A stretch of 63,430 bases of DNA, counting the filler, from Neolecta irregularis DAH-3 (taxonomy: Eukaryota): the NCBI GenBank assembly GCA_001929475.1. It is 27 parts of 27 records of this genome, joined end to end, with 100 filler letters (N's around TTAATTAATTAA, not from the genome) between each part and the next. Parts side by side here need not be neighbours in the genome. Positions count along the whole stretch, not along the records: positions 52,694 to 54,648 come from LXFE01001988.1; 26 more parts are not named here. One strand, given 5' to 3'. Position numbers and translations under genes: made by a program. Shown here piece by piece: positions 1 through 63,430 of the stretch. The first letter of the stretch is position 1. Each line of letters starts with the position of its first letter. The notes below the pieces were generated by a model. That model saw only the letters and a program-made list of their open reading frames with translations. It had not been told where the DNA came from and ran no database searches.

Positions 1-622
1 CTATGATACCGCAACTTGGTTCCAATCGATTTGTTCAACTTCCTCATCGACTACCGGAGCATGAACGTCTATCTACTCAAGGACCTTGAACCACTAGGAT
101 GGCTTCATACTCAGAGCGGTGAAGTGTCTTATCTCTCTCTTCTGTTGACGCCACATTCCATGCTCGCTTGATGAAGGAGCACAAAGAATTGGACGCAAGG
201 ACTACTACGATGACGGTATCATTTGCGTCCGGAAGTGTCAGTTTAGCCGCCTATGCCATCACTCCCGAAGGTTAATGGGGTGCTAAGAATCAAGACATGG
301 GCGGCAATCCTCAAGGTTTTAGTCCTTCGATAGTATGTCGAATGTGCCTGCAACAAGGGCTGACTTTTCCAGGCTGACAAGTTCCAGCTTCTTATTTCCA
401 ACAGAATTATGGGTTATTTCCTTGTTCCGGTATGTCCAGTTTAGTCTTGACTTTTGGTCTTATGCCTTCAAAGGTGCTGTCTGGACCAAGATGCCATTTT
501 CCATGAAACTTGACAATCCAATTCCTTTCTATACCGCACCGCATCGTACAGGGCATTTCTTGTCATTTACTGGACTGGAAGAACAGGAAACGGAAGGAGA
601 CCGGAATGATGCATTTGCCTAA
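1..622 (+). pseudogene. PRP8: PRP8 C-terminal (Jab1/MPN-PROCT) duplicate, frameshifted
   Basis: Close copy of the reverse complement of 33559-34209, with the same intron (gtatgtcg...ttccag). It carries a 4-nt insertion (atgaac-gtct-atctac), further indels and an in-frame TAA (gaaggttaa). Ends ...[11 protein letters not shown]. Confidence 0.9.
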
Positions 623-838
623 GATATATAGTTTTGCGAGGCTTTGAAAGTTGTATGAAGCTTTTGTCAATGAATGTTGTTCACATTTGATTTCAAAATT
701 ACTGAAGTGGTTTTCACCGAGTCCCACGGGGAGATATAGATTGCGATTAAAACATCACGCTATTTTGTATATAACGACTGATAGATTCTATTCACTATTA
801 TATGATCTGGTTTGATACTACTTGTGTTGGTTTTGCAG

Positions 839-926
839 TCACTGCTACGACAGCAGCAATGCATTCAATCTCGACATCGACATTCTTTGGAAGTGTTTTG
901 CATTACACATGCTGTTTGGTTAACTT
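839..926 (-). pseudogene. 3' remnant of RidA/Mmf1 gene (last exon), co-duplicated with PRP8
   Basis: Matches the reverse complement of about 33255-33345 (LPKNVDVEIECIA), with indels. Confidence 0.8.
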
Positions 927-7330: not shown

Positions 7331-8385
7331 ACCAGGTTACGGTGGCTGATCTCATGCTTAATTAGGGAGCTTTCGCCAGCCACCACTTTGACCCAAATAT
7401 CATGATATTAGGTAATTTTGACATATTTCAATTTATCGTGGCGCCCGCCACATTAAATTCCAACGTTTTGTTGTGATACTTTTTTTTGTATCACCTATGT
7501 TCATCTTGTANNNNNNNNNNNNNNNNNNNNNNNNNNNNNNNNNNNNNNNNNNNNTTAATTAATTAANNNNNNNNNNNNNNNNNNNNNNNNNNNNNNNNNN
7601 NNNNNNNNNNCCGGTCTGGTCTGGTCTACTTGGACCGTCTACTTGGACCGTCTATTTGGTCCAGTCGGTTAGGAACACTGATTATATATGTTGTTTGGTA
7701 AAAGGGCTGGTGAATGCAGGCAGTATTTAAGAGTATATTATGCAATACATGAGTGGAAGGAGGGTATTTGTGCGATATTTGCATAAACAGAGTGTTTTGT
7801 GCTTAGTGATTTGGACGGCTTCCCGATTCGATTTAAGGGGAGAAATTATTTGCAGAACCAGGGTCAAACATCACTTGATTGCCTTGATCAGCCTGTTTTG
7901 TCCTCTTTCTCTGGAGAGCCAGCGCTTGGCCCCAGTCTTGCCTTTTGACTCGGTGATCCTTTCTCTCACTGCCTCCATGTCGTATGTTCCGCCAATTGTT
8001 TATATAAAAATTCGAAACTCCTCCTTTTTCACATATAGCTAGCCGAGTCCAGCATAGAGGCCTCTACTTCTGATTATTCAGCAGGTTCAAGCTTCCTGCA
8101 GACCTACAACACACGTAACTACATGTGGCTAGCTGACGGATCTAGCGCCTGTATCAGATCAAATATGTGGTTTAGGAAAATGGTGTTGCATTTAGCTTTT
8201 ACTGGGGTAGGAGGGGCAGGTAACGAATACGATTGTGACCCGTATAATAATCTAAAAATGCAACATATGAACTGATCCTGTCCTGCTCAAGTTTTGTCAT
8301 CGCCATACGGATATAGTATAGCTTCTCAGGGGAGTTCACTTCTTCCAGTCACTTGAAGTGCCTTGGAAAATCCCCAACTTCTTTA

Positions 8386-8703
8386 ATGACACGATATTTC
8401 CTGCGACGCTCCAAGCCATATTTCACACTCATATTCTTTTCACTTTTGATCAATTTCCTTTATGTGCATCTGTTTCATGAAAAGGAACCTTCTTCCAGGC
8501 TCCCTGTTCTAAATGGACAAGCAAATGTCAATTCCAAGCATCGGGCAAATGCTACTTTCGTTACACTCGCTCGAAATTCGGATTTGTATGGGTTAGCTAG
8601 CTCGATCCGACAAGTGGAAGATAGATTCAACAAAAATTTTCATTACCCATGGGTGTTTTTCAACGATGAGCCATTCACAGAAGAGTTCATTAATATTACG
8701 TCT
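8386..8703 (+). CDS. GT15 (KRE2/KTR) alpha-1,2-mannosyltransferase, 5' part
   Basis: Type II TM anchor followed by RANATFVTLARNSDL...VEDRFNKNFHYPWVFFNDEPF. Runs into a gap. Confidence 0.9.
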
Positions 8704-8929
8704 NNNNNNNNNNNNNNNNNNNNNNNNNNNNNNNNNNNNNNNNNNNNTTAATTAATTAANNNNNNNNNNNNNNNNNNNNNNNNNNNNNNNNNNNNNNNNN
8801 NNNCCAGAACTTACAGTGAAAATCCTACATATACACGCTCTCTGCATCTCGCCGGTCTGCCAACTCGCTACCTCTTACTGCGTTTCTCGCTCGAGAGTCG
8901 CGCACCCTCTCACCTCCTTACTCACTCAC

Positions 8930-9740
8930 CCTCCATCTTGCCCGATCGCGTTCCATCTCGCTGCTTGCCCGATTGCTCTCCCTCTGGCTGTGTGTCTGAT
9001 CGCGCTCCATCTGGCAGCTTGCCTAATCTCACTCACTACCTCTGGCCGCCGCTGCAGCTCCACTGCCAGCTCCAGTTCCATCGCATGCGCCAGCGCCATC
9101 GCCAGCTCCATTGCTATCACCCACTCCAGCGCCCTCACCCTTAGCTGTTCCAGCCGCATCTCCTGCTCCAGTTCCATCGCCCGCTCCAGCTATGTCGACC
9201 GCTCCAGCTACATCGCCCACTCCAGCTCAATCGCCCGCTCCAGCTCCATTGCCCGCTCCAGTTACGTCGCCCGCTCCAGTTCCATCGCCCCTCCTACCGC
9301 TCCCGTTCCACCCACCCCTTCCACCAGCCATCGCTCCTGTTCTGCCCGCTTGTCGCTCCTGTTCCGCCCGCCCGTCGCTCCCGTCCCGCTGCTCCCGCCG
9401 TTCCCATTCCGCCCGCCCCTCCTACCGGTCGTCTCTCCCATTCCGCCTGACTGTCGCTCCCGTTCCGCCTATCCTCCCGCCGCTCCCGTTCCAACTTTCC
9501 TCCTGCCGCTCCAGTTCCGCCAGCCCTCCCTCCACTACCACCCCTCCCACCAGCCGTCGCTCCCTTTCCACCGCTCCCATTGCGCCCCTCCCACCGCTCT
9601 CACCGCTCCCACCGCTCCCACCGCTCCCATCGCTTCTGTCGCTCTCGTTCTGCCTGTCGCTACCTCCGCTCCCATTCCGCCTATCCCTCCCGCTGCTCCT
9701 GTTCCACCTGTCCCTCCCTCCGCTCCCGTTCCACCTGACC
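8930..9740. repeat. C-rich low-complexity minisatellite (about 18-bp units such as cgcccgctccagctccat)
   Basis: Tandem gctcc-based units that open ORFs in several frames. Similar tracts lie at 50640-50880 and 58950-59095. Confidence 0.75.
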
Positions 9741-10004
9741 CTAACCATTATTCAGGACGTTTTTTTAGTAAAAGTCCTTGATTGATTGGCTCAATTCACT
9801 TTTTNNNNNNNNNNNNNNNNNNNNNNNNNNNNNNNNNNNNNNNNNNNNTTAATTAATTAANNNNNNNNNNNNNNNNNNNNNNNNNNNNNNNNNNNNNNNN
9901 NNNNTTCAGCAAGTTTGGTTAACTTCACATAACACTGATAAGCGTAACCGCAAAATACGTTTACAGCGGTTATATTCGCTCTTAAAAAATGGCGGCATCA
10001 CCTA

Positions 10005-11019
10005 ATGGGTTTACCGTTCGTTGTATTAACTGATCATGAACCTCTAAAATACTGGCGAACGCAAACCCATTTATCGCGAAGACAATTAAGATGGTTAGAC
10101 TTTTTAAGTGAATTCGACTTTGAAATACAATACATTGAAGGTCGAGTAAATATCGCGGCCGATGCCCTTTCCCGATACTCGGTAGAAGAAGAAACGTTGA
10201 CAACAGTCAACATAGAAGATATTTTCGACGAGACATCATCGGAAACTGGAAGCCGATGGTCAGAAGAGGAAAAGAGACCACTTACTTATAGATCACTATT
10301 CGGGGATACGCCTCTCGAAAGACCAAAACCGAGTAAGACAAACGTAAGCGAAATAACAAGGGGATCTAGAACCGTTTCCGAAAGTGTGGAGTTTCAAGAA
10401 GAAACCCCGACGCTTAGCATTGACGACCGAAGCGAAATAATCCCTAATTGTGATTCGGCACAGAGTATAGAATCTCCGGAAGAAACCCAGATGAATTATA
10501 TCAATAACCGAAGCGAGATTGTGATTAATTTCGCTTCGGTTGAAATATCTCCTGCAGAAAAAAGGGGAATCATTGCCACATACGCAGATGATCCGGTTCT
10601 CGGCCCCGTAAACGAAAATCTGGAACAATTCGAAAGTTATATAAAGAGGGACAGCCTACTTTATATCAGCAACCAGCTCTGTATCCCTAAGATTGCTTCT
10701 CTGCGATCCCGACTACTCCATGCTTACCACGATTGCCAGGGCCACTATAGCTTCGATAAGACGTATAAGGCCATACGTTGTCGACGAAATAACTCTTGGG
10801 TACTTNNNNNNNNNNAGTTAGACTTTTTAAGTGAATTCGACTTCGAAATACAATACATTGAAGGTCGAGTAAATATCGCGGCCGATGCCCTTTCCTGATA
10901 CTCGGTAGAAGAAGAAACGTTGACAACAGTCAACATAGAAGATATTTTCGACAAGACATCATCGGAAACTGGAAGCCGATGGTCAGAAGAGGAAAAGAGA
11001 CCACTTACTTATAGATCAC
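10005..11019 (+). mobile_element. Ty3/Gypsy pol fragment (RNase H end, spacer, integrase Zn-finger start), plus a second variant copy after the gap
   Basis: TDHEPLKY...RWLDFLSEFDFEIQYIEGRVNIAADALSR and LCIP...HAYHD...GH. Confidence 0.88.
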
Positions 11020-11673
11020 NNNNNNNNNNNNNNNNNNNNNNNNNNNNNNNNNNNNNNNNNNNNTTAATTAATTAANNNNNNNNNNNNNNNNNNNNNNNNN
11101 NNNNNNNNNNNNNNNNNNNCCATCGCCCAATCATCGAAAGGAGCACAGAGAGCAGCAAGGGCCGCAGCTCATCCCAGTCAGGCCGGTCACAAGCATCGCC
11201 ACCTTGCAAGGCAACAGAAAGGCGGGCAGGCAGATGACGGCAGCCCATGTGGCGAATCTGTATACAAGTAGCGCCCAGCCGGACTAGCTGGCTAGGCTTT
11301 CACCTGATATTCAATATACGTAGTTACTATTACTCATAGTATCTACGTCGGCATATCCAACCCAAGTCCACATCAGCACCCAACCCCAGGTCGTGTGCAG
11401 ACACAATCGGATCTCAAACTCCATGTAGGCAAATGTGCTTACTACCTTTCTACTTTTATTGCTATCTTATGTTATTCTAATGTATTATGTTGCTGTTCTT
11501 GCCGATGGGTTAATTAGTGGTCTTTCTTTATTATAGAGTTGTTACTAAGCTACGCCTTACACGTTGTATCTACGTATGTTGGAGTTACGGCTAAGCTTAC
11601 TTTGTATCTACGTATATTATAGACTGGTTCTAAGTTTCCTCTAGCTTTTCTCAGTAAAACATGCCGTAGTGGC

Positions 11674-13045
11674 ATGATGTCAAACTCCGCTCTTAACCTT
11701 ATGTTGCTATCATACCTCCGGTTACCGCCACAGCGGTTTGCATTTCCTGCAATTATTTCCAGCCTATGCTTTGTATTAACGGTGCTGTTTCTGCGCCTCT
11801 ATCCATCAGATGATCTGCAATATTCCAGGATCAACACCGACATCGATGCCCCCTTTATTTCAGGCTGCCAGGATCCAATTGCTGCTGCAAAAGCACATCC
11901 TCGAGAAAAAGCCGCAATTGTAATGCTTGCGCGGAATTCTGAATTTTCGGGTATTCTGCGGTCAATTGAATCTATTGAGCAGCGCTTTAATCGCTATTTC
12001 AATTATCCATATGTACTGCTCAACGACAAAAAATTCAATTCGACGATCCGCGCTGCAGTCCGAAACGCAACATCTTCGCTGGTTGAGTTTGGTCAGATAC
12101 CCGAGGCTGTTTGGAATTTTCCTTCCTGGACAAATCGGTCATTAGTCCAAGAAGCAATTGCATTGCAGGGTGACCGTTCTATTTTGTATGGGGGCATGGA
12201 GAGCTACCACAAGATGTGCCGTTTCTATTCGGGCTTCTTTTACAAGCACGAACTGCTTGCAAAGTATGAATGGTACTGGCGTCTCGAGCCAGATGTCTCG
12301 TTCTATTGCGATATCACTTAGTATGCCCTCCTATTCTGTCGTGCCAATACTCTAGCGACCCTTTTGTCTACATGGCTAAACACAACAAGGTCTACGGCTT
12401 CAATATCGCCGTAAAGGAATCAAGCGAGACTGTTCCGAGTTTGTTCCGCTATGTCACTTACTACAAGCGCAAACATAACATTCAGTCAAAAGGCCTGTGG
12501 GAAATGTTTATTACCGAAGAATCCAAACATGGATCTCATAACGACGATTTTGAAGCCATGGAAGCCATGGAAGGCGAATCATACAACTTGTGCCATTTCT
12601 GGAGCAACTTTGAAATTGCCCGCCTCGATTTCTTCCGCAGTCCCGAATACGAGGCCCTTTTTAACACCATTGAAGATAGCGGCGGCTTCTGGAATGAACG
12701 AGTATCTTTGTTTTATCCTACTTGTTTGCTAATTGTCAGTTTGGAGATGCTCCCATACATTCTCTTGCTACAGGATTATTCCTCTCGCCTTCTCAGCTCC
12801 ACTACTTTAGAGACATTGGCTATCGACATTCAGACATTCCTCACTGCCCTGCAAATACTCCCGGAAAACAACTTCCCAGACCGCCAGTCCCGCCAGGGAG
12901 CAATCACAATGCCGAACCCTGGGACAAACCCCGCAAAGGAGGCGTCGGTTGTCGTTGTCAGTGCCCCATAGATCTCCCAGAAATCGAAGTAACAAGTGGC
13001 TCGTGCATCAATCAATGGGTAGATGTAATAGGTGGATGGGTGTGA
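11674..13045 (+). CDS. GT15 mannosyltransferase, KTR5/KTR7-like
   Basis: MLARN, YGGMESYHKMCRFYSGFFYKH, YWRLEPDV, YNLCHFWSNFEIA and GDAPIHSLA. Introns at 12321-12355 and about 12702-12739. Confidence 0.92.
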
Positions 13046-14463: not shown

Positions 14464-15545
14464 CATTCTACAATCTGATTTCCCCCGGTGTTGGATTCAT
14501 TCAGTGTTATCATGTTCTGTAATCTTGGTATGTATGGTTAATCTGGGACTTCAACTTGAACTTTTGTTTACCCGCTCTCTCAGCACATTCACCGTTTTCA
14601 ATTCTCTAGCCCTGATCTCACCTCTCTGAATCCTCATCTGACCCTGCTCTGCCCATTTACGAACACAACATATCTTAACCACGGGAGCGTCCCCTCGTAT
14701 TCTTCCATTAGCAGTACAGCGGCTTAGTTTCTCTATAGAGATACTGACTGTACCGNNNNNNNNNNTCCTGATCTCACCTCTCTGAATCCTCATCTCACCC
14801 TGCTCTGCCCATTTACGAACACAACATATCTTAACCACGGGAGCTTCCCCTCGTATTCTTCCATTAGCAGTACAGCGGCTTAGTTTCTCTATAGAGATAC
14901 TGACTGTACCGAATCTGCTTTTGCGTGAGTCATGTGTTCATCGATTAATCAGAGAAATCCATTATTTTATGATTCAAGTATCGGAGTCATTCTACAACTT
15001 CATCATACCTAAAACAATGTTTCTGAAGGAACCTCGAGGATGTAGTGGTCTCCTTAGGAGCCGTCCTTTTCTCATATATCAATGCATCTAGCAAAATGCG
15101 CTCAACAAATATTGATTTACCTTGCGTAGATATTTGTCTACTTAAAGTTTCTTACACTTTCTATTCCGCTACGGGACATGAAAGTAAAACTATTGTCAGT
15201 CCAGTGTCATCAGTTTACAAACGAAACAAAGAAATATCTCTACAGTCAGTCTGGAATCGAAAAATATGTTCATTCTTTCCCTNNNNNNNNNNNNNNNNNN
15301 NNNNNNNNNNNNNNNNNNNNNNNNNNTTAATTAATTAANNNNNNNNNNNNNNNNNNNNNNNNNNNNNNNNNNNNNNNNNNNNCACGCGCCCTTGTCTGAC
15401 TGGTCCTGTGCATTTCGCCTTCTCTCTGGATAGATTGCACCGCAACACTGGACTGTAAAGATAAACTGATAAACACCAAACATTCTCCATATCCTGTCTA
15501 TCTAGACCTTATCTACCGACAATCCCTTGAGCACAAAGCAGGCTT

Positions 15546-21667: not shown

Positions 21668-24600
21668 CATATGACTTGTTGTTGGGCAAGTCTTATATTG
21701 CATGGGGCAAAGTAGGGTTCAATACTGATGGCACGGGGAAGACATGGGTGTGGATTTATTCATTAGATGGGAAGCAGTGGGTAGTATTGTTAGGTGCCAA
21801 AGGCACCAGCTGTGTAGATCTTGAAGACAGAGTTCTTGCTTGTTCTTCTTACTTTGACTTGTTATGGGANNNNNNNNNNCCTGAAGTTTATTGGGACAGT
21901 CTCTATTATACCAAGTTCAGTAAGTTTTGGTTACTTCGCGTAACTCAATTAGTCATTATATCACATCTGTGTTATCTCACCTACAATGGTTAGCACTGCT
22001 TCTGGGGATGAACCATTCTGGTGCATCTGGTATGATGCAATGGACCATTCTTGAAACAACTGCCCCGACTTCCAGGAAGTGTTAAAGTCAGGTGCAGTTA
22101 GAATTAAAGAGGACAAGAAACTCGAAACCAAAAAGGGACTGGTCATCCCTCTATACTTTGGACATGGGGGACAGAAGTCCCACCCCCTACTAACATCAAC
22201 CCTTAATGCCCGACTGATTAAACTCAGGCCTTTCGCCTCAGAAGATGACCTAGTAATGACAACCATTGTAGACATCAACACTATGTCTGCACAACCTGAT
22301 TAGCATAGGTGGCAAATTCCAGTTACTGCTGCCCCAGAAAACCCTAGTAAACCGGCACCTTGATGGACTGTCAAGCCAGCTTCCATCACGAATGTTGAGG
22401 TGTCTCTGATCTTAGTCAAGCAACTCGAGGATACTCAATTTATGACTACTGTGGGCATTATCCTAGGGTTGTCTCCATTGGCATGAACAGCTTTCAGTAG
22501 AGAACTAAAGTCTTCACAAACTCCCACTTCCCAACTAGTGGATTTGATCGGACAAGAGATAGCTGCGCCTATGTCCAACGATATGGATCTGACTCATGAA
22601 GATATCCAGGAGATTCATACCCCCATTATTCCAGTTTGTGGGGTAAGCCAGCCAGGCAGTATGAACCACTAACCCTCAGGTCCGCACATATGGGCCTGGA
22701 GAAGGATAAGGAATTGGGTCATCCTCAGACCCAACCACTACATTTCACTGTTAAGTCCTCAACTATACAGGTCTTAATAAATGATACTCCAGTCACTGCA
22801 CTCTTGGACAATAGCTCGGAAATTTGTATCATTTCCATGAAACTCATTGAGGACCTTGGGTTGATGATGGATGATACCTTGAGCCTAAAGATGAGAGTTA
22901 CAGATGGCTGAAGTTCAAAAATTCTTGGAGTATGTGCCCATGTACCAGTGGCTTCATGATCCCAGTGCACAATGCAGTTATGGTGGATATGTCATATGAC
23001 TTGTTGTTGGGCAAGTCTTATATTGCATGGGGCAAAGTAGGGTTCAATACTGATGGCATGGGGAAGACATGGGTGTGGATTTATTCATTAGATGGGAAGC
23101 AGCGGGTAGTATTGTTAGGTGCCAAAGACACCAGCTGTGTAGATCTTGAAGACAGAGTTCTTGCTTGTTCTTCTTACTTTGACTTGTTATGGGATAGATC
23201 CCCACCAGCCTTCAATACTAGTACCCTCCATGAGAAGGTTGATCAAAAAGTAAAGCAGGTCAACCAAGCCTATACCCAGGGAGAAAAGCCTGAAACTTTG
23301 GATGCTACCACTGCTGCTTCTTGTAATAAAGGACTTGAGGTTAAAACTATCAACATTGGAAATGGAAATCTACAACCAGAGGAGATAGTTTGTATAGATC
23401 TGTCTTAGCTGAATTCCAAGATTTTCTTGCCTTTGTCGAAGCTGATAAAGGTAACCTAAGCCCCCATATTGCAGTTCCCACAAAAATAAACACTGTACCA
23501 CATGAACCCTGGCAATCAATAAATTACCCTATGAACAAGGTTAAGCAATTGGCAGCCATTGAAATACTCAAGGATCAACTCGCAAATGGACTCATGGAAT
23601 ACTTGTATGGACCCTATTGCAACACCTGGATTCTTGAAGAAAAGAAAGAGAAGGGTAAATACCAGTTGATAATAGACTGCCAGCCTTTGAATAAGGTTAC
23701 CATTAAGGATGCCTTTCAGCCTCCTTTGGTAGACCTCATCTCTGACGAATTTGCTGGCATACCTATTATCACCCTGGCAGATATCAAAGATGGATATGGG
23801 CAGAAAGAGATTGATTATGCCTATTGAGACCTTACCTCTATACATACCCCCATCGGATTACTACACTTGACTTGACTCCCTCAAGGCTGGACTAACTCAG
23901 TAGCAGACTTTCAACACTGCATGTCCAAAGTCTTGTTGGACTTGATCCTGAACACCTGCAGAGTATTTATTGACAATATTGCTATAAAGTTGCCTTCTGT
24001 CATTGATGAAACTTTAGATCATGGAGTCCATAGATATGTTGTCCAACATATCCAGATGGTCACCAATGTTTTATCTGAATTGAAGAAGGCTAATCTCACT
24101 ATAAGCATCTACAAATCACAGTTTGGGCATGATACTGTTAATTTCCTTGGTTACCAGGTTGGAAAGCATGATCAAAGTCCAATGCCTAAGAAATTGGACA
24201 AGATTGCTGCCTGGGAACCCTGTCATGATGTCAAAGCAGTTTGAGGGTTTATTGGGCTCTGTATATATTACAGGGTCAGGGTAAAGGAATTTTCTCAAGT
24301 CATGAGGCCTCTATATGACCTCACCAAGAAATTTGCAAGGTTTCACTGGGGTCCTAGCGAGCAGCGAGCTATGGACCACATGATGGAGCTGCTATGTAAG
24401 GCTCCTATTCTTCACACACTGGATTATGATTGTTGGAATATTATTATGACAGATGACAGTGAGCAAGGGTGGGGAGCCGTCATTCAACAGGAAGATGATG
24501 AACGGCACAGATATGCCTGTCATTATGAATCAGGGACCTGGAACTCAGCTGAACTAAAATATGCCTTGATCCAAAAGGAATGTCTTGGCTTGGTCAAGGC

Positions 24601-25618
24601 CCTGAAGAAATTTCACTACTGGATCTTGGGAAACAGGATTACTATTGAAACTGATGCCTGCACCTTACTATGGATGGTAAATCGATCACCCAAAGATATG
24701 CTGAATGCCATGATGGTCAGGTGGCTGGCCTTGATCTGCATGTATGACTTCAAGATCAAACATGTGCCTGGCCATAAGAATTCAGTAGTGGATTTCCTAT
24801 CATAAGAAGGGAACAGTGGCGAAGCTGAGTCTGAGGAAGAGGTGGACAAGTTCATAGATGCATCATTAGGTAGTTTTTATATTCAAGTTTGTAATTCTGG
24901 TATTGTAAATGAACCATTCACAGAAAGTCACTACAAAGGGAATATTTGGAAATTGGAAGATGGCTTAGCACACTGGTGGATATCCCAGGGTTTACAGTGT
25001 AGGAAATGAAACACATAAAGGACAAAAGCAAAAATTACTTGATAAAAAACTGCAAAATATATAAAAACAGTGATAAAAGAAGGGGGACACCCAAAAGAAT
25101 AATTGAGTGTAGAAAAGATATAAAGATATTGGGGTGTGCTCATGAGTAATTGGGCCACCGGGGAGTTGAAGCAGTTATGAAACTGCTCAACAGGAAATAT
25201 AAATGGAGAAAGATGTTTGAAGATATTCAGGCTCATGTAAACAGTTGCAACAAGTGTCAAAGAGGAGGACCAATCGGAATGTGGAGGAGTTACACCCGAC
25301 ATTTAGTAATTTGGTATGGGAGAAGGTCAGCATAGATGTAATTCACATGCCCATGAATAAGGGCAAGCACTATATTGTGGTTGCACATGACAACCTGATG
25401 GGGTGGGTGGAGGCTAGAGCATTGGCAAAAATAAACGCTGATGCAGTGGGCAAGTTCCTCTATGAGGAAATTATATCAGGTTTGGCTGTCCAGAAAGATT
25501 GGTAGTTGATGGGGGTCCTGAGAATAAAAGACTTGTATGAGAAATTTGTGAGATGTACAAGATAAGGGTTAGTGAAATTAGCCCTTACCACCCTCAATCC
25601 AATGGGATGGTTGAACTC
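21668..25618 (+). mobile_element. Degenerate Ty3/Gypsy gag-pol (protease ALLDNSSE, RT FIDN, RNase H, integrase)
   Basis: Domain order is PR-RT-RH-INT. Many stops and R->C/H/Q/* changes. The integrase PYHPQSNGMVE is interrupted at 25619. Confidence 0.9.
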
Positions 25619-26074
25619 TGTCAACAAAATACCTCTTGGGGGTTCCGAACCAGGTTATGTGAAGTTAACCAAACTTACTGAACCTGGAATGTTTTTTCCA
25701 GGACTCAATCCCTGACACAACCTATAAGAGCACTCAGATAACTTAACAGCAACCAGACTCAAAAGATCCTACTATAGAACCTCTCAGAACCCAATCACTA
25801 ACTTAGAACAAACCCCAGTAAGGGTTTATCAGCAACCAACTTCCAAGTACCTCAAGTCCTTTCAAATCACACAAGTAGTTCAACCAATATATAAAAGTGA
25901 TCTTGGTAACTCTTGATCAGTAGATAGGATCCCAAAGAGTAGACTGTGAGGTTTTGGATGTATAAAAAAAGAGGGACTTTTCTTAGGCAGCCCTCAATCC
26001 CAACAGATAACAATTAACCAAGAAGTCTGGTTCAACCAAAATGTACAGATGTAACTTTGGCATCTCTAGATCTA
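25619..26074 (+). mobile_element. Probable LTR inserted into the integrase
   Basis: Starts with TGTCAAC exactly where integrase homology stops. Shares gttaYgYgaagt..accaaacttactgaac with the reverse complement of 21880-21965, which starts TGTGAT. Confidence 0.55.
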
Positions 26075-26751
26075 NNNNNNNNNNNNNNNNNNNNNNNNNN
26101 NNNNNNNNNNNNNNNNNNTTAATTAATTAANNNNNNNNNNNNNNNNNNNNNNNNNNNNNNNNNNNNNNNNNNNNACCAACTCAGATTCCCAGATATTCAA
26201 CAAATCATTCACTTAATCCTCAAGGATAATTCAGGAGTCTCTGTTAATACCATTTATGAAATTTATATTCAACAAATATTTGCAAGGCAAGGGAAACCAA
26301 ATATGATACTCAGGGATCCTCAGGTTAAAGAAGTCATGGTTTTTATCTCTAGGCAGGAATTTTTGGAAGACTATTGGAATTGGGTTGTAAATAAAAGTAG
26401 GAAATGATAGTAAAAGTTTTGGTGGTAAGTTTGAAAAACCAAAAAATTAGGAAAAGTAGAATAACAAATATGGTTATTAATTAAGAGGAGGGAAAAACAA
26501 GTATGAAATAATTAAGGGCATGTATATAGTATATAAGGGGCTTATCCCTGACCTTAGGAAAACAATCTAATCATCAAAGAATATTGTAATTTGAAATATT
26601 ATCAACTCTAAAAAAGTCCAAGAAGAAGCTGGGAGTTTGGTCCTAACTCAACTCTACAAATTCAACAAAAATAAAGTTAACAATCAACAAAATCAAAATA
26701 ACAAAATCAACAAAGATCCAACACAGGCTCCTAATCTCAAAATACCAACAT

Positions 26752-28040
26752 ACCTAGGTTGTCCAGTTAGTTCAACTACAAAGCCCCTGCACCCCCTGAA
26801 TTCATTTTCAGTTCACAACTTCACAGAATCGTTATGTTGCATACTGGAAATAATTTATATATTATTGCCTGAGGCTAGTAGACCAAGGCAATGAAGAAAT
26901 TGTCCATTTTGATGCCCTGCAAAGAAAACAACTTGAATTAATTTCAGAGCTACTTCAGAACTCTCACACAAATAAAGATAAACTTATTCAAAATTTCCTT
27001 ACAATATCAGCATTGTTTTTAATGCAAAAACTTGAAGGAAAAATATTTAACAATCTTATTATTCATTTCATGGCAATAATGGGAATCGATGAGTGAGTAG
27101 GTCAATTTCATCAGGCAGTTCATTATACCTATATATTGGCTGGGCTATTATATTGTACAAGAATAATCATTATTGGATGGATAATTCATTTGGAAAAACA
27201 GGAACAAGTATTTGAGCCTGTTAAACAACTTCAGAAGATACACCAAAAATGGCTTGTTGATAGTTCTGACACACTTGTCAGTACTATGATTAGTAGGTTG
27301 GCATATGGGAAAAAAATTGCAAGGGAAACTGGTAGCAGAGTAACAGTTCACTGGTCAGAAAATTCACAAATTTTTTATTTCTGTGGCAAACCAATTGCAA
27401 TGGACTATTTTCTGGGTTTTTTATGAAATTTAATTGATGACGCAGAAAATCTACTCTGGGATGAACTTTTTTTTGCTACAACTGATAGCCACCACTTTAC
27501 AATTGACTTGAGTAATGTTTAAGATAATATGACATCTACCAAAGTGGGAGAGTCATTTATTTCATTTCAAGATAACAAATTTTATCATGGTGAGGAAATA
27601 GTACTTCAGAATTTACTAGCATCACAAAAAAGATGAATTATGCTTGATATTGGCTAATGGAAACTTACAGGAAGAAAATATTACCATTCTCGAGTTCAGT
27701 AATTTTTAGAGTGGTTACTAATTTTAATGCACATTACTGGAGGTCAACCAGCTCAAGATACTGAAATTACAGCTCTCTGACATAGTAATTGTATCACACA
27801 AGATCGGAATATTTTTATCATTGATGGGAAAGTTGCTTTTATTATGCTATATCATAAATCACAAGTAATATTTCGATCTTCAAAAGTTATCCCACAATTT
27901 CTCCCTAATAAGGTTGGACAACTACTAGGAATTTATTTAATATATATTTGGCCATTTTTTGATTAGATAAATAACCTAGGCTGTCTAGTTAGTTCAACTG
28001 CAAAGCCCCTGTACCCCCTGAATTCAATTTCAGTTCACAA
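26752..28040 (+). repeat. Pair of 67-bp direct repeats (26752-26818 and 27974-28040)
   Basis: acctaggYtgtcYagttagttcaactRcaaagcccctgYaccccctgaattcaWtttcagttcacaa, 5 mismatches. Confidence 0.9.
26880..27965 (+). pseudogene. Relic of a fungal telomere-linked RecQ / DUF3505-type element protein
   Basis: LAGLLYCTR, SRLAYGKKIA, HITGGQPA(Q)DTEI, RNIFIIDG.V..YHKS and IPQFLP..VGQLL..YL.YI.PF. Many stops and nearly no CpG. Confidence 0.75.
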
Positions 28041-28230
28041 TGACCTGTTGAGTGGCTATCCTGGACCTGTAAGGGATGGCAGCACCTGTGGTGTGAACAC
28101 CTGTACAAAGACCTTTACATTATACCTGTGNNNNNNNNNNNNNNNNNNNNNNNNNNNNNNNNNNNNNNNNNNNNTTAATTAATTAANNNNNNNNNNNNNN
28201 NNNNNNNNNNNNNNNNNNNNNNNNNNNNNN

Positions 28231-28300
28231 CCCTGTAAGTTCTAGGACTTTCACTGTAATTCCAGATTTCCCTGTAAGTTTAAGAACTTTCACTGTGCAG
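28231..28300. repeat. Array of AACTTTCACTG-type motifs, same family as 43949-44080
   Basis: actttcactgta units at about 20-bp spacing. Confidence 0.7.
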
Positions 28301-28959
28301 GTTGTGCAATAGCTGCATGCTGTGACAACAGACAGTTCATAGTTGACAAGGGTTGTGACACAGCAGTGCACTGGTGTGGGGCAGCAGTACAGGGAGGTGA
28401 TGAGCACAGGAGTGAGAGGAATCAATTGGGTCAGGCATGCAAGGGAGGGTTAAAGTTTTCTATTAAGCTTACTAGCCATTTGTACTCAGTTATCACGTAG
28501 TCTTTTTTTTATCTTTTTCCAAGCCAATAGAAGGATCCAGAACCGCCAGCAATGCCCAGAATAACAGGAAAACAAGAGACAGATTCTCTTTCTGCGAAAC
28601 CAGCTGCTGCGTTTGTCCAGGAGCTGGATAACAGGGAGAAGGGTGTGGCACTGGGAGAGACCGCGCGTACGGGATCATGGTTTATTACAGCGCGCAGACC
28701 GGAGTGGAACCTTATTGTTTTCGCCTTGTTAAATTGGAGACGACAATAGCTTCTGGGGGGGGCGGGGTAGCTAATTCCTTTTTTTTTGAGGGGGCGTGGA
28801 ATGGGGAGGGGCAGAGAGGAGCAGCGCGCTGGATGGTGTGTGGATGGCGTAGGGCGAGCCGTCGATGATGGCCTCGACGAGGATGTTTGTGTCGGTAGGA
28901 GTGATGTATGTATGAGTAGCGGTGATGTCTGTGTCTGTGTCTGTGTCGGTTGGCCTGGA

Positions 28960-52693: not shown

Positions 52694-54648
52694 GCTAAGA
52701 ACCGAAATCAAGGACCTGGTGCAAAGGGGATTTATCAGACCAAGTTCATCTCAATACGGGGCAGTTTGTAGGTTTACAAAAAAGAAATCTGGTGACTTAC
52801 GAATGTGTGTTGATTACCGTGACTTGAACGGCAATACTGAAAAGAACTCAACAGCAATGCCACGGATTGACGAGATGATCGATCGCATCGGCAATGCACG
52901 ATGGTTTTCGAAACTCGACTTGGCATCTGGATACTATCAGCAGAGAATCTCACCGAACTCCATACCTTTAACTGGCTTCAAGACCCCTATTGGTCATTTC
53001 GAATGGTTAGTACTACCTTTTGGACTTGGAAATGCGCCGGCGACATTCATCCAGATGATGAACCGCGCATTGAACGGACTCGATTATTGCTGCAATATCT
53101 TCATGGACGACGTATTAGTTTTTTCACCAAGTAAAGAGCAGCATACCATTGATTTAAATAATGTCCTCAAGAGATTAAGGAGTCAGCAACTATTCGTGAA
53201 ACGGAAGAAGTGCGAGTTCGAGAAACAGACTATTGAATGGGTCGGTTTCACTATATCGGCACAGGGCGTTGAGGTCCAGGAAGCTAAGGTATCGGCGATC
53301 AAGGACTGGCCAGTGCCGAAAACCGTCAAAGAGGTCCAAGGGTTCTTGGGCCTCGCTGGATACTATCAAGGGTTTGTCAGTGACTTTGCAACAATTGGTG
53401 CACCTTTATCTGAGCTTACTCGGAAGGATATCCCCTGGACTTGGGGGGTTGAACAAGAACAGGCCTTTGAAACCCTAAAGGTTAAACTTATTTCAACCCC
53501 CGTATTAGTGCAACACGATCCTGAGAAACCATCAGTACTTACTTGTGATGCTTCGGGGATCGGTGTTGGTGCTGTACTCTCTCAGGTAGGGGATGATAGT
53601 CAAGAACATCCAGTGATGTTTATGTCGAAAANNNNNNNNNNCTTCAACCCCTGTATTAGTGCGACACTATCCTGAGAAACCATCAGTACTTACTTGTGAT
53701 GCTTCGGGGATCGGCATTGGTGCTGTACTCTCTCAGGTAGGGGATGATAGTCAAGAACATCCAGTGATGTTTATGTCGAAAAAACTTGATCAACATCAAC
53801 TGAACTGGATGACCCATGATAAGGAGCTATTCGCGATTAATAAAGCACTAGAGAAATTTCGACCATACCTTCATGGGACGAAATTTAAAATTCGAACAGA
53901 TCATCAGGCATTGCAGTATATCCTGAAACAGCCGAAGTTAAATCCTAAGCAAATTCGAATCCTGGCGTTTATGGCGGAGTTTCCTGAGTTTGAAGTGGAA
54001 TATATACCAGGGGCACTAAACCTGGTATCCGACGCACTATCGCGCAAGCCGAGCTTTGAGTGTCAAGCTGTCAGGCTGCAGCAAGACCATACTTGGCTAA
54101 GTCAAGTTAGCCAAGAGTTAAAAGATAGTGAATGGACCTCAACACTAACAGAACTCCAAAACGGACGAGTTATCCCAGACTTCGAATTGGATGATGATCT
54201 GCTGCTCTGGAATAACCGAATTTGTGTCCCAAAAGGATGCAGATTAGCATTACTCCAGGCTTACCATGACGACCCCTCGAGTGGACATCCAGGTCCCAAG
54301 AAAATGATCACATTAATATCGTGACAGTTTTATTGGAAGAAGATGTCAGCACAAGTCACAGACTTCTGTAACTCATGCTCACAATGTGCGCGAGTTAAGG
54401 CCGATACCCGAGGGAAGTTAGGACTCCTAAACNNNNNNNNNNGCATTAATGTCGCGACGGTTTTATTGGAAGAAGATGTCAACACAAGTCACAGACTTTT
54501 GTAACTCATGCTCACAATGTGCGCGAGTTAAGGCCGATACCCGAGGGAAGTTAGGACTCCTAAACCCATTAGACTTACCCGATTCGCGATGGACAGATAT
54601 TACCATGGACTTTATAACTGGACTCCCAGCTAGTGATGGCTTCGACGC
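52694..54648 (+). mobile_element. Relatively young Ty3/Gypsy (Tf-like) pol: RT, RNase H, integrase start
   Basis: LRMCVDYR, LPFGLGNAPATF, FMDD, TCDASG, TDHQAL, HDDPSSGHPG, CSQC and MDFITGLP. A mosaic of copies across 10-N gaps. Confidence 0.95.
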
Positions 54649-57684: not shown

Positions 57685-59280
57685 AATGCTTACTTGCTTA
57701 TTTTTGTCCACCGGACTTGCTTGCTTACTTGCTTATAAACAAGTAAGCAAGCAAGTTTTACTTGAACAACTTGCTTGTTAGCAAGTCTGGTCCTAATGCC
57801 TCGTTGTCAACGTCAATATCATATTCGACAGGCCAGAGAATACCACTTGGTGGGTAGGTCTTATTCCTCTTCATTTTTGTTATCTTAGCCAAGCACACAG
57901 TTGCAGTGGGTAACATAACTCGCGGTCCCGATATGCGCCATCAAATCGTCCTATCCGGTCCAGAGCTTGTTAGCACACAGGTTCCAAACTTCCAATCAGA
58001 GTTTACAGTGAGTTTTGACCGCTTTGACAAAGTGTAGGCTCGTGGTAAAAAAATGGGGTTGAAGCTTTGTTGTGCGAGGCGGGGTCTTGTAGCGAAGAAT
58101 CAAGTTATCAAAGAAAAGACTTGACTCGCTATTCAGACAGTATCCTCGTCTATATAAAAGAAACCTTCGCAGTCCTTTTTATCCTATCCGCAGAACACAC
58201 CCTATTCCAAGTGGCTTGGAAAAACAAAGATGATAAAGTAAGTAAGTAAAAATAAAAGATAAGAACTTCTCTAAACTAGATCCAGTGATACAACCGGCTG
58301 CATTTCCCCTACACAAGAGACCTAGGTCGAGCCAGACCGATCCAATGACCTAGTTCTTCAAAGTTAAAATGTAGAAACGCGTAGTTGGTTTTGGCTGACC
58401 GCGTGNNNNNNNNNNCCCAGTGATACAACCGGCCGCATTTTCCCTACACAAGAGACCTAGGTCGAGCCAGACCAATCCAATGACCTAGTTCTTCAAAGTT
58501 AAAATGTAGAAACGCGTAGTTGGTTTTGGCTGACCGCGTGCTGTAGACGTCTAAAAATGCCGCGCAGGATAGTTGATGTATATGATTTGACGATATGGGA
58601 TGGAGAGCGAGGAGCGTTTTGAAGGAGTGGGAGGGGATAACCGTCGGGGTAGATAAGGACACTGGTAGAGGGTAGTGGTGAGGGCGGAGATGAGGTCTGT
58701 CGCTGTAACGGGAAAGTGAAGAAAATGCGTGTTTTCATGTTACTTGCGACAGGCTAGTGTGTTAGCGGGGGATCCGGGGGGGTAAGGGCAAAGGCAAGGG
58801 TTCTTGTGGGCTCTGGTTGGAGGATGCACTTGAAGAGATCATGCTGCNNNNNNNNNNNNNNNNNNNNNNNNNNNNNNNNNNNNNNNNNNNNTTAATTAAT
58901 TAANNNNNNNNNNNNNNNNNNNNNNNNNNNNNNNNNNNNNNNNNNNNAGAGCGGGGTAGAAACAGGCAGGGGAGTGAGACGAAGCGGGTAAGCGAGAGGA
59001 AGAAGGTGAGCGAGAGGAGGCAGGTGAGCAGGAGGAAGCGGGTGAGCAGGAGGTAGCGGGTGAGGGTGAGCAAGAGGAAGCAGGTGAGCGAAACTACAGG
59101 GTCAGTATGAGCGCAGGTTGCAAACATAGTGGAAGCAAAAGATTGGAAGAGTTGTTAAATGGCTGATAATGAGTCATCTGGACCAAGACTTGATAATGGT
59201 GTGTAGGAAGGGTGTTGTGGAAAATCACGGATGTCGCGTTGATTCTGTAGAGGCTGCACATGCATAGCAATTGGTATATC

Positions 59281-60407
59281 CTATAACATAGTTAGTACTG
59301 TAAACAAAATTGAAGGTGTATGTACAGGTTGTTTTCCATTAATAATGGGACAATTGTCCCATGATTTGATGCATTGAAGCATCTCGCCAGTTGCTGCCAG
59401 TAGCCTATTCCGCCGATCAGTAAAATCCCGCTGAGCTGATGAGAATAGCCTCTCAGTAGAAGCCTCCATTGCTGGAGCTGACAGGATATCAATTGCCATT
59501 GTTGAAAGAGAAGGAAATCTGCGTCTCTGAGCTTGATCCAGCCACCAAAGTAGAGGCCCTTGGTGTCCAGGTGGTACTGCATTTGTCCGTAGTAATGCTT
59601 CACTGCAGTAAACATCATACTCACTTTCTTCACTAGTTGTTAGATCATCCATTTGGCTATCCATCCATAGGTTAAATTGATTAGTTGAAGGGCCAGATTG
59701 TTGCTGTTGTAGTATGGCCTGTGTAATAGCCGGAGTTGTTGTTGAAACTTCATAATTAGTATTCCAAAATTGTCGCACCTGCTCTTTGCTATGAATTATC
59801 CATTCTGGGCGATCTTTCCATCTCCTTTCAAAATATGCCCACTTCCATCTTGGGTCAAGAACAACTGCAGCAGCATATGCTGGTGAATCATCAGTTTTGG
59901 TATAATATTCATTTAGCTTATTCCAGCCAGCCTCAATACAGTTGATGAGAATAACATCCCCTGCCCATTTTACCCGATAATTTTCGAAATGTTGTAGTAA
60001 ATATTCAAGAGCTGGAATGACTCGATTAATGCAGTGGTCAGAGGATTCACAAGCCTTAGTTGTATGTAGGAATGGCTCCAGAAATTCGCATATACTCGAA
60101 AGCATTTTCCAGTTCATAGTTGAGAGAAAATCATTTGCTAAATCCGGTTCTTCATCAATAGTATCTTTAATTGCTTGCATAATTTCTGGTTTTAGTGCCC
60201 ATGAAATCATATTATACCATGAATTCCATCGTGTTGAATTATCCCTTTTTAAGATATATCCCTCTTTGGTTCGAGCACGAAAAGCTTGAATTCTCTGGGG
60301 ATTATGCATAACCCAAACAATAATATTATGGAGCTTGCCAAGTGGTCCATATGCATGCCAGTCTTTGATACTATTTAAATCAATTTCTCCTGTATTACAA
60401 TAAGGAT
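59281..60407 (-). mobile_element. hAT transposase, C-terminal part (5' end interrupted)
   Basis: GPLGKLHNII, DNSTRWNSWY, AAVVLDPRWK and the dimerisation domain WW...FPSLSTMAIDILSAPA...ERLFS. Confidence 0.92.
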
Positions 60408-60849
60408 CAGTGCTGTATAGAATCCGTATCAGATTCGATACAGATTCATTGATTCGAATCTGGATTTGGATTNNNNNNNNNNNNNNNNNNNNNNNNNNNN
60501 NNNNNNNNNNNNNNNNTTAATTAATTAANNNNNNNNNNNNNNNNNNNNNNNNNNNNNNNNNNNNNNNNNNNNTGTGTAATTCTTCTAGTTCAGTCTTGAG
60601 TAATATGCAGTCTTTGGAAATTGCACCTGCGATATTGACTCGACTATCAAAGTTGAACGTAATTGTATCGATTTTTGACGTTATTACCGTATTATATCAC
60701 GCGTGATTATTACGGTATTATACGTTAATATCTCTAGTTTGCAAAAATATATTATTCTCAATCTGACACCCTCTACAAAATGTGCAACAAATAATCTGTT
60801 CTCCATCCCTACAACCACAATTCAGAGCTAAACCACGATAACAGTCCTT

Positions 60850-61332: not shown

Positions 61333-62264
61333 TGGTGACGAGAAAACTGCTAGCCAAAGGTGTTTTATCATGATGGCTACACAAACAACCTTATGTGATA
61401 GCCCTCAGGTCCGACATCGTTCAGTTGGCAGAGATCGCAAGTTTTGATACTCAAAGTACAAATAGACCAGATTTAAAGTACTAGCCTAAATGTTGCATCC
61501 AGGGAAAGTATCTAGCCTATATGTTATATCTTAGGCTTCTAATTACATCATGTTTTATCCATAAAGGCCTATTCCGCGCCTCTTGATTCATTGGTAAGGT
61601 GTACACAAGAGGTACATCCGTGCAATCTCCTGGGTCGTCTGACGAAAGCAGGGACAAAGATGAGGATTAGAAATAAGGATGGTGCAACTGGTTCTCTGGT
61701 CATCGGTCTANNNNNNNNNNNNNNNNNNNNNNNNNNNNNNNNNNNNNNNNNNNNTTAATTAATTAANNNNNNNNNNNNNNNNNNNNNNNNNNNNNNNNNN
61801 NNNNNNNNNNGCGGTCTCTTGCTCGGTGAGGTTCTTAGTCGGATATGTGAGTAGCAAGTCTTGTTATTATGCAACTCCGGTGAGGCCTCGCGTTGTATAA
61901 TTATGTTGAGTGGTCACTTGTTGATAGTAACTACTCGTATTGTGATTATAAGTGGTAGGCCTGGTGCGCCCAGGCTCTCATTAAATACCCATCAAAGACC
62001 GCCGCCTTCTCCGTTCTCCCTGCCCATTCCGTCCCTTCCTCTGCTTCCGGGTTCGTAACTTCTATTCGTATTCGGTATTGCCGCCGCAAACCAAACTGGT
62101 GCTCTGTTGCTTTGCTCCGTGTGGGCCGCATAGCACCCACAGTATATCTCTTAGAATAGGTAGTTGTTAGAGAATAGCCTTTCATGATTAGCGCGCAAGG
62201 GCCCAAACACCCGTTCATGCCCGTGTCTCCCAGGCCTGAGCTCCGTAATTTCCCGCAGACCTAA

Positions 62265-62655
62265 CAGCCGGTTCCGCATCCGTTATTGGGTCCGCTTCCC
62301 TTATCTGGTTAGGCTGCCTTTATCCGGTTCCGAATTCCCAATCTGGACGACAGCCACCAATTTCCCCGGATTTGATAACAACCTAGTTCCGCTTCCCTTA
62401 TCTGGTTCTGCGTCCTTTATCCGGTTCCGCTCTCTTAATCCGGAGACAGCCACATTATTTGGTCCTCATCCAGTAGATTGGCTCATATGCCTGCAATCAT
62501 ATACCCATACCAATGCAGTAGGTGGCGGATAAAAGATATAAGGGACATTAGATAGAAATGTATATAAAGGCTGCTTATTCTAAGCTCACACGCCTACAAG
62601 CTTAGATTAAGGAAATATAACCTGATCTTATTGTACTCGAGCTCCAACACTTACA
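62265..62655 (+). repeat. LTR-like sequence with internal tandem repeats
   Basis: Repeated ggttccgcttcccttatctggtt units, a TATATAAA near 62561 and an ...ACA end. The last ~65 bp recur at about 51058-51126. Confidence 0.5.
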
Positions 62656-62656
62656 A

Positions 62657-63424
62657 CTACTCGCGCCGGACTTTTGCGGCATAAGTCCTGCGGTATCCGT
62701 CATCAGTTCCAAGAAGCCAATCGACAGAGGGCAGGCCATAAGCACCGTTGGTAAACTGGTGGTGCCAGTCATGAAACCTGATGCCCGGGATGCCTGGGAT
62801 GTCGTACCCGGAGTGGTGGATGGTAGAACTGAGCAGCGAGTATGAGGCACACAGCCAGAAGGTGATGATGTGGCTGCGGATGATGTATGCACCTGCGATG
62901 ATGGGGAAGACATTGGACAGTAAATGATCTACTGGATGGGCAAACTGTGTGGCGATGGCCACGGGCGCAGTGAACAGGTGGTGCATCTTGTGGAAGCGCC
63001 GATACATGTATTTGGTGTGCAGCAGGCGGTGTGAGCAGTAGAACAGCGCCGGTTTGACAACGAAGCAGATCGCGAGGTCGCGGACCAGCTCGGCGGGTGC
63101 CGGGAGGAGGGCGGAGACGCGGAGCAGCGGCGCGCGTCCAGCCGCGCGCCCGCCAAGGAGGAGGGCGACCTGGAGCGGAGTGGTGACCAGAAACTGGTTC
63201 GTGAAGGCGACGCGCAAACAGCGGCGCATATCTGCGAGCGAGAGCTCGACGTTCGGCTGGATCTTGTACGCGTACAGCACCCGCGGGCGGAACACGTCGA
63301 CCAGGAAAAACAGCAGCGCGGGCAGCCAAAAGCACGTCAACTGCACAAGCTGCGAGCCTGCGAGGACAATCACGGCGGGGTCGTGGTGCGCGACAAGCGA
63401 GGCCCAGGTGGATGCAACCGTCAT
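62657..63424 (-). CDS. Fatty acid hydroxylase / sterol desaturase family (ERG25/FAXDC2-like)
   Basis: His boxes HRLLH, HKMHH, FAHPVD, HHSGY and HDWHH. Intronless. Confidence 0.9.
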
Positions 63425-63430
63425 CGCGGG

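Follow-up and report, generated by a model that had tools for sequence, protein, structure and literature searches.

The genome assembly of Neolecta irregularis DAH-3 holds a Ty3/Gypsy transposon fragment whose contigs end in near-copies of one another, and these copies differ mainly where the dinucleotide CG (CpG) of one version reads TG or CA in the other. The question raised by this locus is what the doubled sequences are, and what process has concentrated their differences at CpG. The fragment lies at 52694-54648 of the window, by which we mean the whole stretch of DNA analysed (63430 bases). A preliminary description, centred on 53490-54560, had attributed the pattern to methylation-driven or RIP-like decay (RIP, repeat-induced point mutation). 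Here we report that the CpG excess is real and far beyond chance, that the doubling originated in assembly, and that the excess probably reflects deamination of CG-methylated cytosines in the transposon copies of N. irregularis.

The window consists of 27 scaffolds of 1.0 to 6.2 kb each and represents no single chromosome stretch; the scaffolds are separated by spacers of 44 N, TTAATTAATTAA and a further 44 N (e.g. 1493-1592), across which neighbourhood is biologically meaningless. That the DNA comes from an early-diverging ascomycete, as had been supposed, is borne out by a Sin3 fragment (1594-2592) with 100% identity to an N. irregularis DAH-3 protein, the next best matches of which belong to Saitoella, Pneumocystis and Protomyces (64-70%). 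According to the genome report, DNA from field-collected fruiting bodies (in the plural) was sequenced as paired reads with 300-base inserts and assembled with Velvet, giving 14.5 Mb in 7101 contigs at 44% G+C, with 12.8% repeats and 96% of core genes present (PMC5309816).

Within the scaffolds there are six further gaps, each of exactly 10 N (starting at 10806, 14756, 21870, 53632, 54433 and 58406), and alignment of all six recovered near-identical flanks in every case. The sequences concerned are as follows.

52694-54648, plus strand: Ty3/Gypsy pol fragment (reverse transcriptase, RNase H and the start of the integrase zinc finger, by Pfam), scaffold 21
53492-53631, plus strand: end of the left contig of scaffold 21, 140 bases, a variant of 53643-53782 across the gap 53632-53641
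53643-53782, plus strand: second version of those 140 bases, at the start of the next contig of scaffold 21
54311-54432, plus strand: end of the middle contig of scaffold 21, 122 bases, a variant of 54444-54565 across the gap 54433-54442
54444-54565, plus strand: second version of those 122 bases in scaffold 21, with its reading frame intact
10094-10296, plus strand: inner part of scaffold 6, which recurs as a separate 204-base contig (10816-11019)
10817-11019, plus strand: the short variant contig of scaffold 6, behind the 10-N gap 10806-10815
21668-21869, plus strand: 202-base variant contig of scaffold 9, which precedes the gap 21870-21879 and matches 22993-23194 of the same scaffold
58282-58405, plus strand: contig end of scaffold 24, 124 bases, a variant of 58417-58540 across the gap 58406-58415
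14611-14755, plus strand: host-gene control in scaffold 7, dovetailing with 14767-14911 across the gap 14756-14765

At four of the six gaps (14756, 53632, 54433 and 58406) the flanks dovetail: the left contig's final 122-145 bases recur at the start of the right contig, the match running to the contig ends. At the other two (10806 and 21870) a contig of 202-204 bases is wholly contained, in variant form, in the interior of its neighbour. These contig-end overlaps and contained short contigs rule out adjacent or tandem genomic repeats, which is how the preliminary description had read its "variant copies flanking gaps". The doubled flanks are instead unmerged contig overlaps, or side branches, of a sequence present in several versions, which stayed apart in the assembly because the underlying reads differed slightly from version to version. 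Where contigs are estimated to touch or overlap, Velvet sets the gap to 10 N or more, and the case is like other unmerged overlaps at minimal gaps in short-read scaffolds, in that contig ends are repeated to the last base at four of the six gaps, the gap is always 10 N and the assembler was Velvet. For users of the N. irregularis assembly it follows that sequence doubled over a 10-N gap is an overlap to be merged and no tandem repeat.

Combining the six flank pairs yields 21 differences over 936 aligned bases, comprising 18 transitions and 3 transversions, and transitions from CpG to TpG or CpA make up 13 of the 21 differences and 13 of the 18 transitions. The first scaffold 21 pair (53492-53631 and 53643-53782) carries five differences over 140 bases, four of them CpG transitions (53501, 53512, 53564 and 53565) and the fifth a G/T transversion, likewise at a CpG (53517); the second (54311-54432 and 54444-54565) carries five over 122 bases, with CpG transitions at 54322 and 54326 beside three transitions in other contexts (aatAtcg/aatGtcg, tcaGcac/tcaAcac and cttCtgt/cttTtgt). 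Differences within 53490-54560 thus do fall mainly at CpG, as had been claimed, at six of the ten places; the six CpG transitions that had been cited as examples are all correct, while the three non-CpG transitions and one transversion had been passed over. Alignment also reproduced the earlier counts at three further pairs, with CpG transitions accounting for all three differences in scaffold 6 (10094-10296 and 10817-11019), two of three in scaffold 9 (21668-21869 and 22993-23194) and two of three in scaffold 24 (58282-58405 and 58417-58540). The gap at 14756, which had gone unmentioned, lies in a host-gene scaffold, and the two differences between its flanks (14611-14755 and 14767-14911) are both transversions, with no CpG transition.

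If sequence context had no effect, CpG-type changes would be expected to form 21% of transitions (394 of 1872 sites), against the 13 of 18 observed (binomial p 4.6e-6). Expressed per site, 13 transitions at 86 CpG positions (0.151) stand against 5 at 342 other C/G positions (0.0146), a 10.3-fold difference in rate (Fisher p 1.4e-6). With the CpG transitions removed, transitions and transversions stand at only 5:3, so that the entire transition excess lies at CpG. The bases preceding the 13 sites show no trinucleotide preference (TCG 4, CCG 4, GCG 3, ACG 2), and the bias is present in four separate scaffolds (6, 9, 21 and 24), which include at least two unrelated gypsy families. At one place (53564-53565 and 53715-53716) the two versions read TG and CA, respectively, which we counted as two CpG transitions; as derivatives of one ancestral CG these must represent two independent hits on opposite strands. 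Within the gypsy reading frames, 11 codon changes are non-synonymous and 5 synonymous (3 and 2, respectively, in the pair at 53492-53631), and two CGA codons have become TGA stops: the TGA at 54322-54324 is CGA in the version at 54444-54565, and the short contig of scaffold 6 reads TGA at 10896 where the inner version has CGA (10173). Decay, and not selection, therefore shapes the versions.

Scaffold 21, composed of three contigs and two 10-N gaps at 45% G+C, is identified as a transposon by its Pfam domains (RVT_1 1.2e-31, RT_RNaseH 1.7e-35, Integrase_H2C2 3.5e-05). The best relatives of its pol are chromodomain-bearing gypsy polyproteins of about 50% identity, mostly metagenome proteins, and none of the best protein matches is labelled Neolecta. 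A further view of its variation was obtained from contigs of run X1, a coded read set that is possibly the window's own source sample and hence offers no independent support. Forty-five such contigs fit scaffold 21, 17 of them at 99% identity or more, 6 at 95-99%, 14 at 90-95% and 8 below 90%, and at least three versions cover 53845-54023. Alleles would not diverge by more than 10%, so the element must have several copies. In all, the X1 contigs vary at 118 places, by 81 transitions and 37 transversions; among the 40 of these 118 places that were listed, 12 of 31 transitions fall at CpG, against 22% expected (p 0.028). CpG transitions thus form 62% of differences in the pairs 1.5-4% apart and 30% (12 of the 40 listed places) among the more distant X1 variants, a fall that would be expected if a small class of fast sites saturates.

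The X1 contigs also bear on the concern, raised in the preliminary description, that low-coverage sequencing errors might underlie the differences. At 54318 and 54326 both letters occur in independently built contigs, with word depths of 910 and 249, which makes such errors an unlikely cause; the G version is the more abundant at both places (910 of 1159), G being at 54326 the CpG-bearing letter. Word depths (356-573 per contig, with sums of 140-2400) were considered as a measure of copy number and dropped, as the genome report gives a read total of 33.8 Gb but also a coverage of 199-fold (PMC5309816), two figures that set no single baseline. As separate observations, one X1 contig joins 53388 to 53647, its short side being 30 letters, and a 1926-base contig of coded run X2, from another organism of the same study, matches 54330-54418 in the integrase zinc-finger region (89 bases, 8 differences), which points to a related element in that organism.

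The composition of three further, repeat-like scaffolds is also informative.

21880-26074, plus strand: degenerate Ty3/Gypsy element (protease, reverse transcriptase and RNase H in broken frames; Pfam and tblastn), main contig of scaffold 9
26175-28130, no strand assigned: scaffold 10, 33% G+C, with no protein family match
58948-60472, minus strand: hAT transposase fragment (Pfam Dimer_Tnp_hAT, 4.4e-18), scaffold 25

Scaffold 9 retains 31 CpGs in 4397 bases, an observed/expected ratio of 0.16, and its 162 missing CpGs are matched by 165 extra TpG and CpA. Similarly, scaffold 10 retains 6 CpGs in 1956 bases (ratio 0.11; 47 missing, 52 extra), and scaffold 25 has a ratio of 0.50 (33 missing, 45 extra). 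The depletion of scaffold 9 is even along its length, with sliding ratios of 0.10-0.30, and its two versions each keep a single CpG in 200 bases, at different places, which accounts for two of their three differences. By comparison, the six host-gene scaffolds of at least 4 kb (2, 7, 8, 12, 13 and 14) have ratios of 0.84-1.06. Scaffold 9 and scaffold 21 share only 28-31% protein identity in pol and represent different gypsy families. Scaffold 6, a Ty3/Gypsy RNase H and integrase region (Pfam RT_RNaseH 9.5e-15; 42% G+C), has a ratio of 1.40, and scaffold 21 one of 0.85. Scaffold 24 gave no Pfam hit and no gypsy similarity.

A duplicated core splicing factor gene serves as a control for the transposons.

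1-926, plus strand: additional, frameshifted copy of the Prp8 3' end (PROCT and JAB domains, with frame breaks; blastn), scaffold 1

This copy has 88% identity over about 930 bases to an intact one at 34209-33255 (minus strand, end of scaffold 12), and represents duplication of part of a core gene that is otherwise single-copy. The pair differs at 63 places, of which 42 are transitions; 13 of the 42 (31%) lie at CpG, an excess over the expected 22% that falls short of significance (p 0.12), and nine of these 13 are losses in the pseudogene. Both Prp8 contigs begin at the same base, their first 66 bases being identical, and further Prp8 pieces (RRM_4 and the U5-snRNA binding site) occur on a 1-kb scaffold at 45388-46336. 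The other control is scaffold 7, in which Pfam recognises a Glyco_transf_15 gene and a WD40 repeat.

What process could produce both the differences between versions and the loss of CpG from whole elements? We consider it probable that N. irregularis transposon copies bear 5-methylcytosine at their CG sites now or did so in the recent past. Such cytosines would deaminate to thymine, a change that is poorly repaired, and CpG would thereby turn into TpG or CpA some ten times faster than other cytosines change. Where reads came from slightly different versions of an element, the assembler would fail to merge them, and the overlapping ends at the 10-N gaps would expose the accumulated differences. 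On this account the elements of scaffolds 6 and 21 would be young, with many CpGs left and decay just starting, as in their CGA to TGA stops; those of scaffolds 9, 10 and 25 would be older, having lost between half and nine tenths of their CpGs; and genes would be spared. The proposal that decay is methylation-driven is to that extent supported, in that CpG is hypermutable and the composition of the repeat scaffolds fits methylation.

A candidate for the responsible enzyme would be a CG-specific methyltransferase such as one of DNMT5 type. The methods of the later version of a Pneumocystis centromere preprint report proteins with the DNA methylase domain PF00145 in N. irregularis and Saitoella complicata, the class being unstated there, and state that BLAST searches with them matched helicases and SNF2 ATPases of Pneumocystis (10.1101/2023.05.12.540427); the latter matches would fit a DNMT5-type protein. 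A further paper lists three enzymes, Dim2, DNMT5 and DNMT4, for S. complicata, only DNMT4 for Taphrina deformans and only DNMT2 for Schizosaccharomyces pombe, Neolecta not being included (PMC10538959, supplementary file 1). With PF00145 proteins reported in N. irregularis itself and three methyltransferases listed for Saitoella, CpG-targeted mutation in an early-diverging ascomycete is less surprising than the preliminary description had held. In the literature searched we found no paper that links Neolecta, transposable elements and CpG, nothing relevant on Neolecta and repeat-induced point mutation, and nothing relevant on Neolecta and DNA methylation besides the Pneumocystis preprint.

Several points weigh against methylation as the cause. 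The core sample is 21 differences only, and in the second set, from run X1, significance reaches only p 0.028 with 40 of 118 places classified. The near-identical pairs may be either paralogous copies or alleles in pooled tissue. The controls outside transposons are small (the dovetail at gap 14756 has two differences and the Prp8 pair 63, with CpG transitions above expectation, though without significance), so that any claim of an effect in repeats only is weak. Scaffolds 6 and 21 hold nine of the 13 CpG transitions yet are not CpG-poor, which would fit young families; the most CpG-poor scaffolds, 9 and 10, showed no tie to Neolecta in protein searches, and the field collection of the DNA, together with scaffolds of 54-62% G+C in the window, weighs on their origin. 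Furthermore, no DNA cytosine methyltransferase was found among the open reading frames of the window, no 5-methylcytosine data for Neolecta were found in the literature searched, and the Pneumocystis centromere preprint, as first posted, states that no member of the Taphrinomycotina has a DNA methylase (PMC10327204).

Among the alternatives, the pattern might owe nothing to methylation and reflect a modest intrinsic mutability of CpG together with small-sample noise in allelic differences among the pooled nuclei or individuals of the fruiting bodies. The small number of differences and the use of several fruiting bodies lend this some weight, as do the host-gene dovetail, whose two differences represent sample-level variation outside transposons, and the Prp8 pair, in which the excess runs in the same direction without significance (31% against 22%). 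However, the reported CpG effect in unmethylated yeast is roughly two-fold, and the ten-fold gap seen here (p about 1e-6) is well above both that figure and noise. Ratios of 0.11-0.16 with an equal gain of TpG and CpA, beside genes at about 1, would moreover need a strong and long-lasting CpG-specific process, and X1 variants of less than 90% identity within one sample cannot be alleles. We therefore regard this explanation as unlikely.

It is similarly improbable, in our assessment, that the transposon-bearing scaffolds, or if not all of them then the CpG-poor 9 and 10, derive from a methylated contaminant of the field sample, for instance a basidiomycete, a plant or an animal, in which case the CpG signature would say nothing about Neolecta. 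The field-collected tissue is in keeping with such an origin, as are the scaffolds of 54-62% G+C in a genome of 44%, the tendency that foreign DNA may have to gather in short scaffolds, and the outcome of protein searches, in which neither gypsy element had a close relative that is named; for scaffold 9 the full search returned 40142 relatives with a best single-stretch identity of about 45%, and a word-based search none. Against it, foreign DNA can take up little of an assembly of 14.5 Mb that contains 96% of core genes; many X1 contigs, of word depth 356-573, cover scaffold 21, whose G+C is 45%; and the bias recurs in four separate scaffolds (6, 9, 21 and 24) that span at least two unrelated gypsy families.

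RIP-like mutation had been named alongside methylation in the preliminary description, and could be imagined here as a premeiotic process, akin to RIP or to methylation induced premeiotically (MIP), in which a DNMT4/RID-type enzyme mutates duplicated DNA with a preference for CpG instead of CpA. The changes do lie in repeated DNA and are transitions of the C:G to T:A type; DNMT4, of the RID class, is listed for Saitoella complicata and Taphrina deformans of the same subphylum (PMC10538959, supplementary files 1 and 7); and RIP may also strike CpG in some Aspergillus species, as one paper notes (PMC4352252). Slow deamination would yield the same products, TpG and CpA, and composition by itself does not discriminate between the two processes.

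Classical RIP finds no support: of the 18 transitions, 13 are in CpG, 2 each in CpT and CpC and only 1 in CpA, the context that RIP prefers, and across the 27 scaffolds the RIP indices give no clear signal (TpA/ApT 0.55-1.06, with (CpA+TpG)/(ApC+GpT) at least 1.08 except in scaffold 6). The borderline indices of scaffold 6 (0.88 and 0.85) belong to a sequence that is CpG-rich and, at 42% G+C, not A+T-rich, and those of the CpG-poor scaffolds are 0.77-0.83 and 1.40-1.44. There is also no strand polarity, C>T and G>A being mixed within pairs and within single X1 variant contigs (three of each at 53037-53111). We hold a CpG-aimed variant of the process very doubtful, the evidence being mildly against it, given the lack of polarity, the low density of mutation (versions 1.5-4% apart), the Prp8 duplicate that at 88% identity has no significant CpG bias, and the scaffold 9 versions, in which nearly all CpG losses are common and TG/CA double differences are absent, so that loss predates the split of the copies. 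Were such a system nonetheless to exist in Neolecta, repeat-induced mutation would date back to the root of the Ascomycota and predate the CpA preference that arose in the Pezizomycotina.

Comparable signatures are known from other fungi. In one paper, CpG signatures in transposons of Tuber, Microbotryum and rusts are tied to methylation and subsequent deamination, and CpA or CpT signatures to RID (PMC4352252). The ascomycete Tuber melanosporum, which has Dim-2, RID and DNMT5, likewise shows C-to-T change in transposons mainly at CpG (PMC4352252, PMC4165359, PMC7862722), with CpG-preferring methylation of transposons and genes spared (PMC4352252, PMC4165359). The two cases differ in that methylation in Tuber, a member of the Pezizomycotina, was established by bisulfite sequencing and is accompanied by a CpA signature, whereas for Neolecta, of the Taphrinomycotina, we have a sequence footprint with CpA in 1 of 18 transitions. 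Microbotryum and the rusts (Basidiomycota, with a Masc2/DNMT1-type enzyme) similarly show C-to-T change in transposons at CpG only, ascribed to deamination of 5-methylcytosine (PMC4352252); Microbotryum, in a different phylum, prefers TpCpG, unlike the contexts in Neolecta. An account of Cryptococcus neoformans describes CG-specific methylation by DNMT5 confined to transposon-rich repeats (10.1101/149385), and it is this mechanism that the CG-only footprint of Neolecta most resembles; in Neolecta itself a DNMT5 is a candidate, suggested by the preprint methods and by the relative Saitoella. Neurospora crassa RIP shares with Neolecta C:G to T:A transitions in repeats and stop codons in transposons; its preference for CpA, need for RID, heavy strand-polarised bursts and raised A+T are features of which none was seen in the Neolecta scaffolds.

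CpG decay of transposons is therefore a known phenomenon, and its interest here lies in a lineage mostly taken to lack DNA methylation. To our knowledge the Taphrinomycotina are usually treated as being without it, fission yeast having only a DNMT2-type enzyme and no methylase having been detected in Pneumocystis. If methylation is indeed the cause, the decay in Neolecta, an organism that cannot be grown, suggests that one branch or more of the Taphrinomycotina has kept a transposon defence based on CG methylation, which would bear on the toolkit of the ancestral ascomycete and on the number of times methylation has been lost.

A number of minor features were observed in the same scaffolds. 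A 29-base stretch at the start of gypsy scaffold 6 (9905-9933) matches the integrase region of gypsy scaffold 9 (25654-25682) at 28 of 29 bases on opposite strands; it was considered as an assembly-graph link and rejected on account of its one mismatch and the opposite strands. Scaffold 10 contains a direct repeat of 67 bases (26752-26818 and 27974-28040; 92.5%). The hAT transposase fragment of scaffold 25 is open over 59284-60471 (minus strand), encoding 396 residues with the dimerisation domain. Besides the fuller Glyco_transf_15 (alpha-1,2-mannosyltransferase) gene of scaffold 7 (11623-12968), a second gene fragment of this family lies at 8317-8703 on a 1.1-kb scaffold, and blastn detected no DNA similarity between the two. 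Finally, the four scaffolds of 54-62% G+C are those at 8804-9804, 28231-29340, 43949-45231 and 61811-63430; two of them hold long open reading frames with no Pfam match, the last encodes a fatty acid hydroxylase domain, and they may represent foreign DNA from the field-collected tissue.

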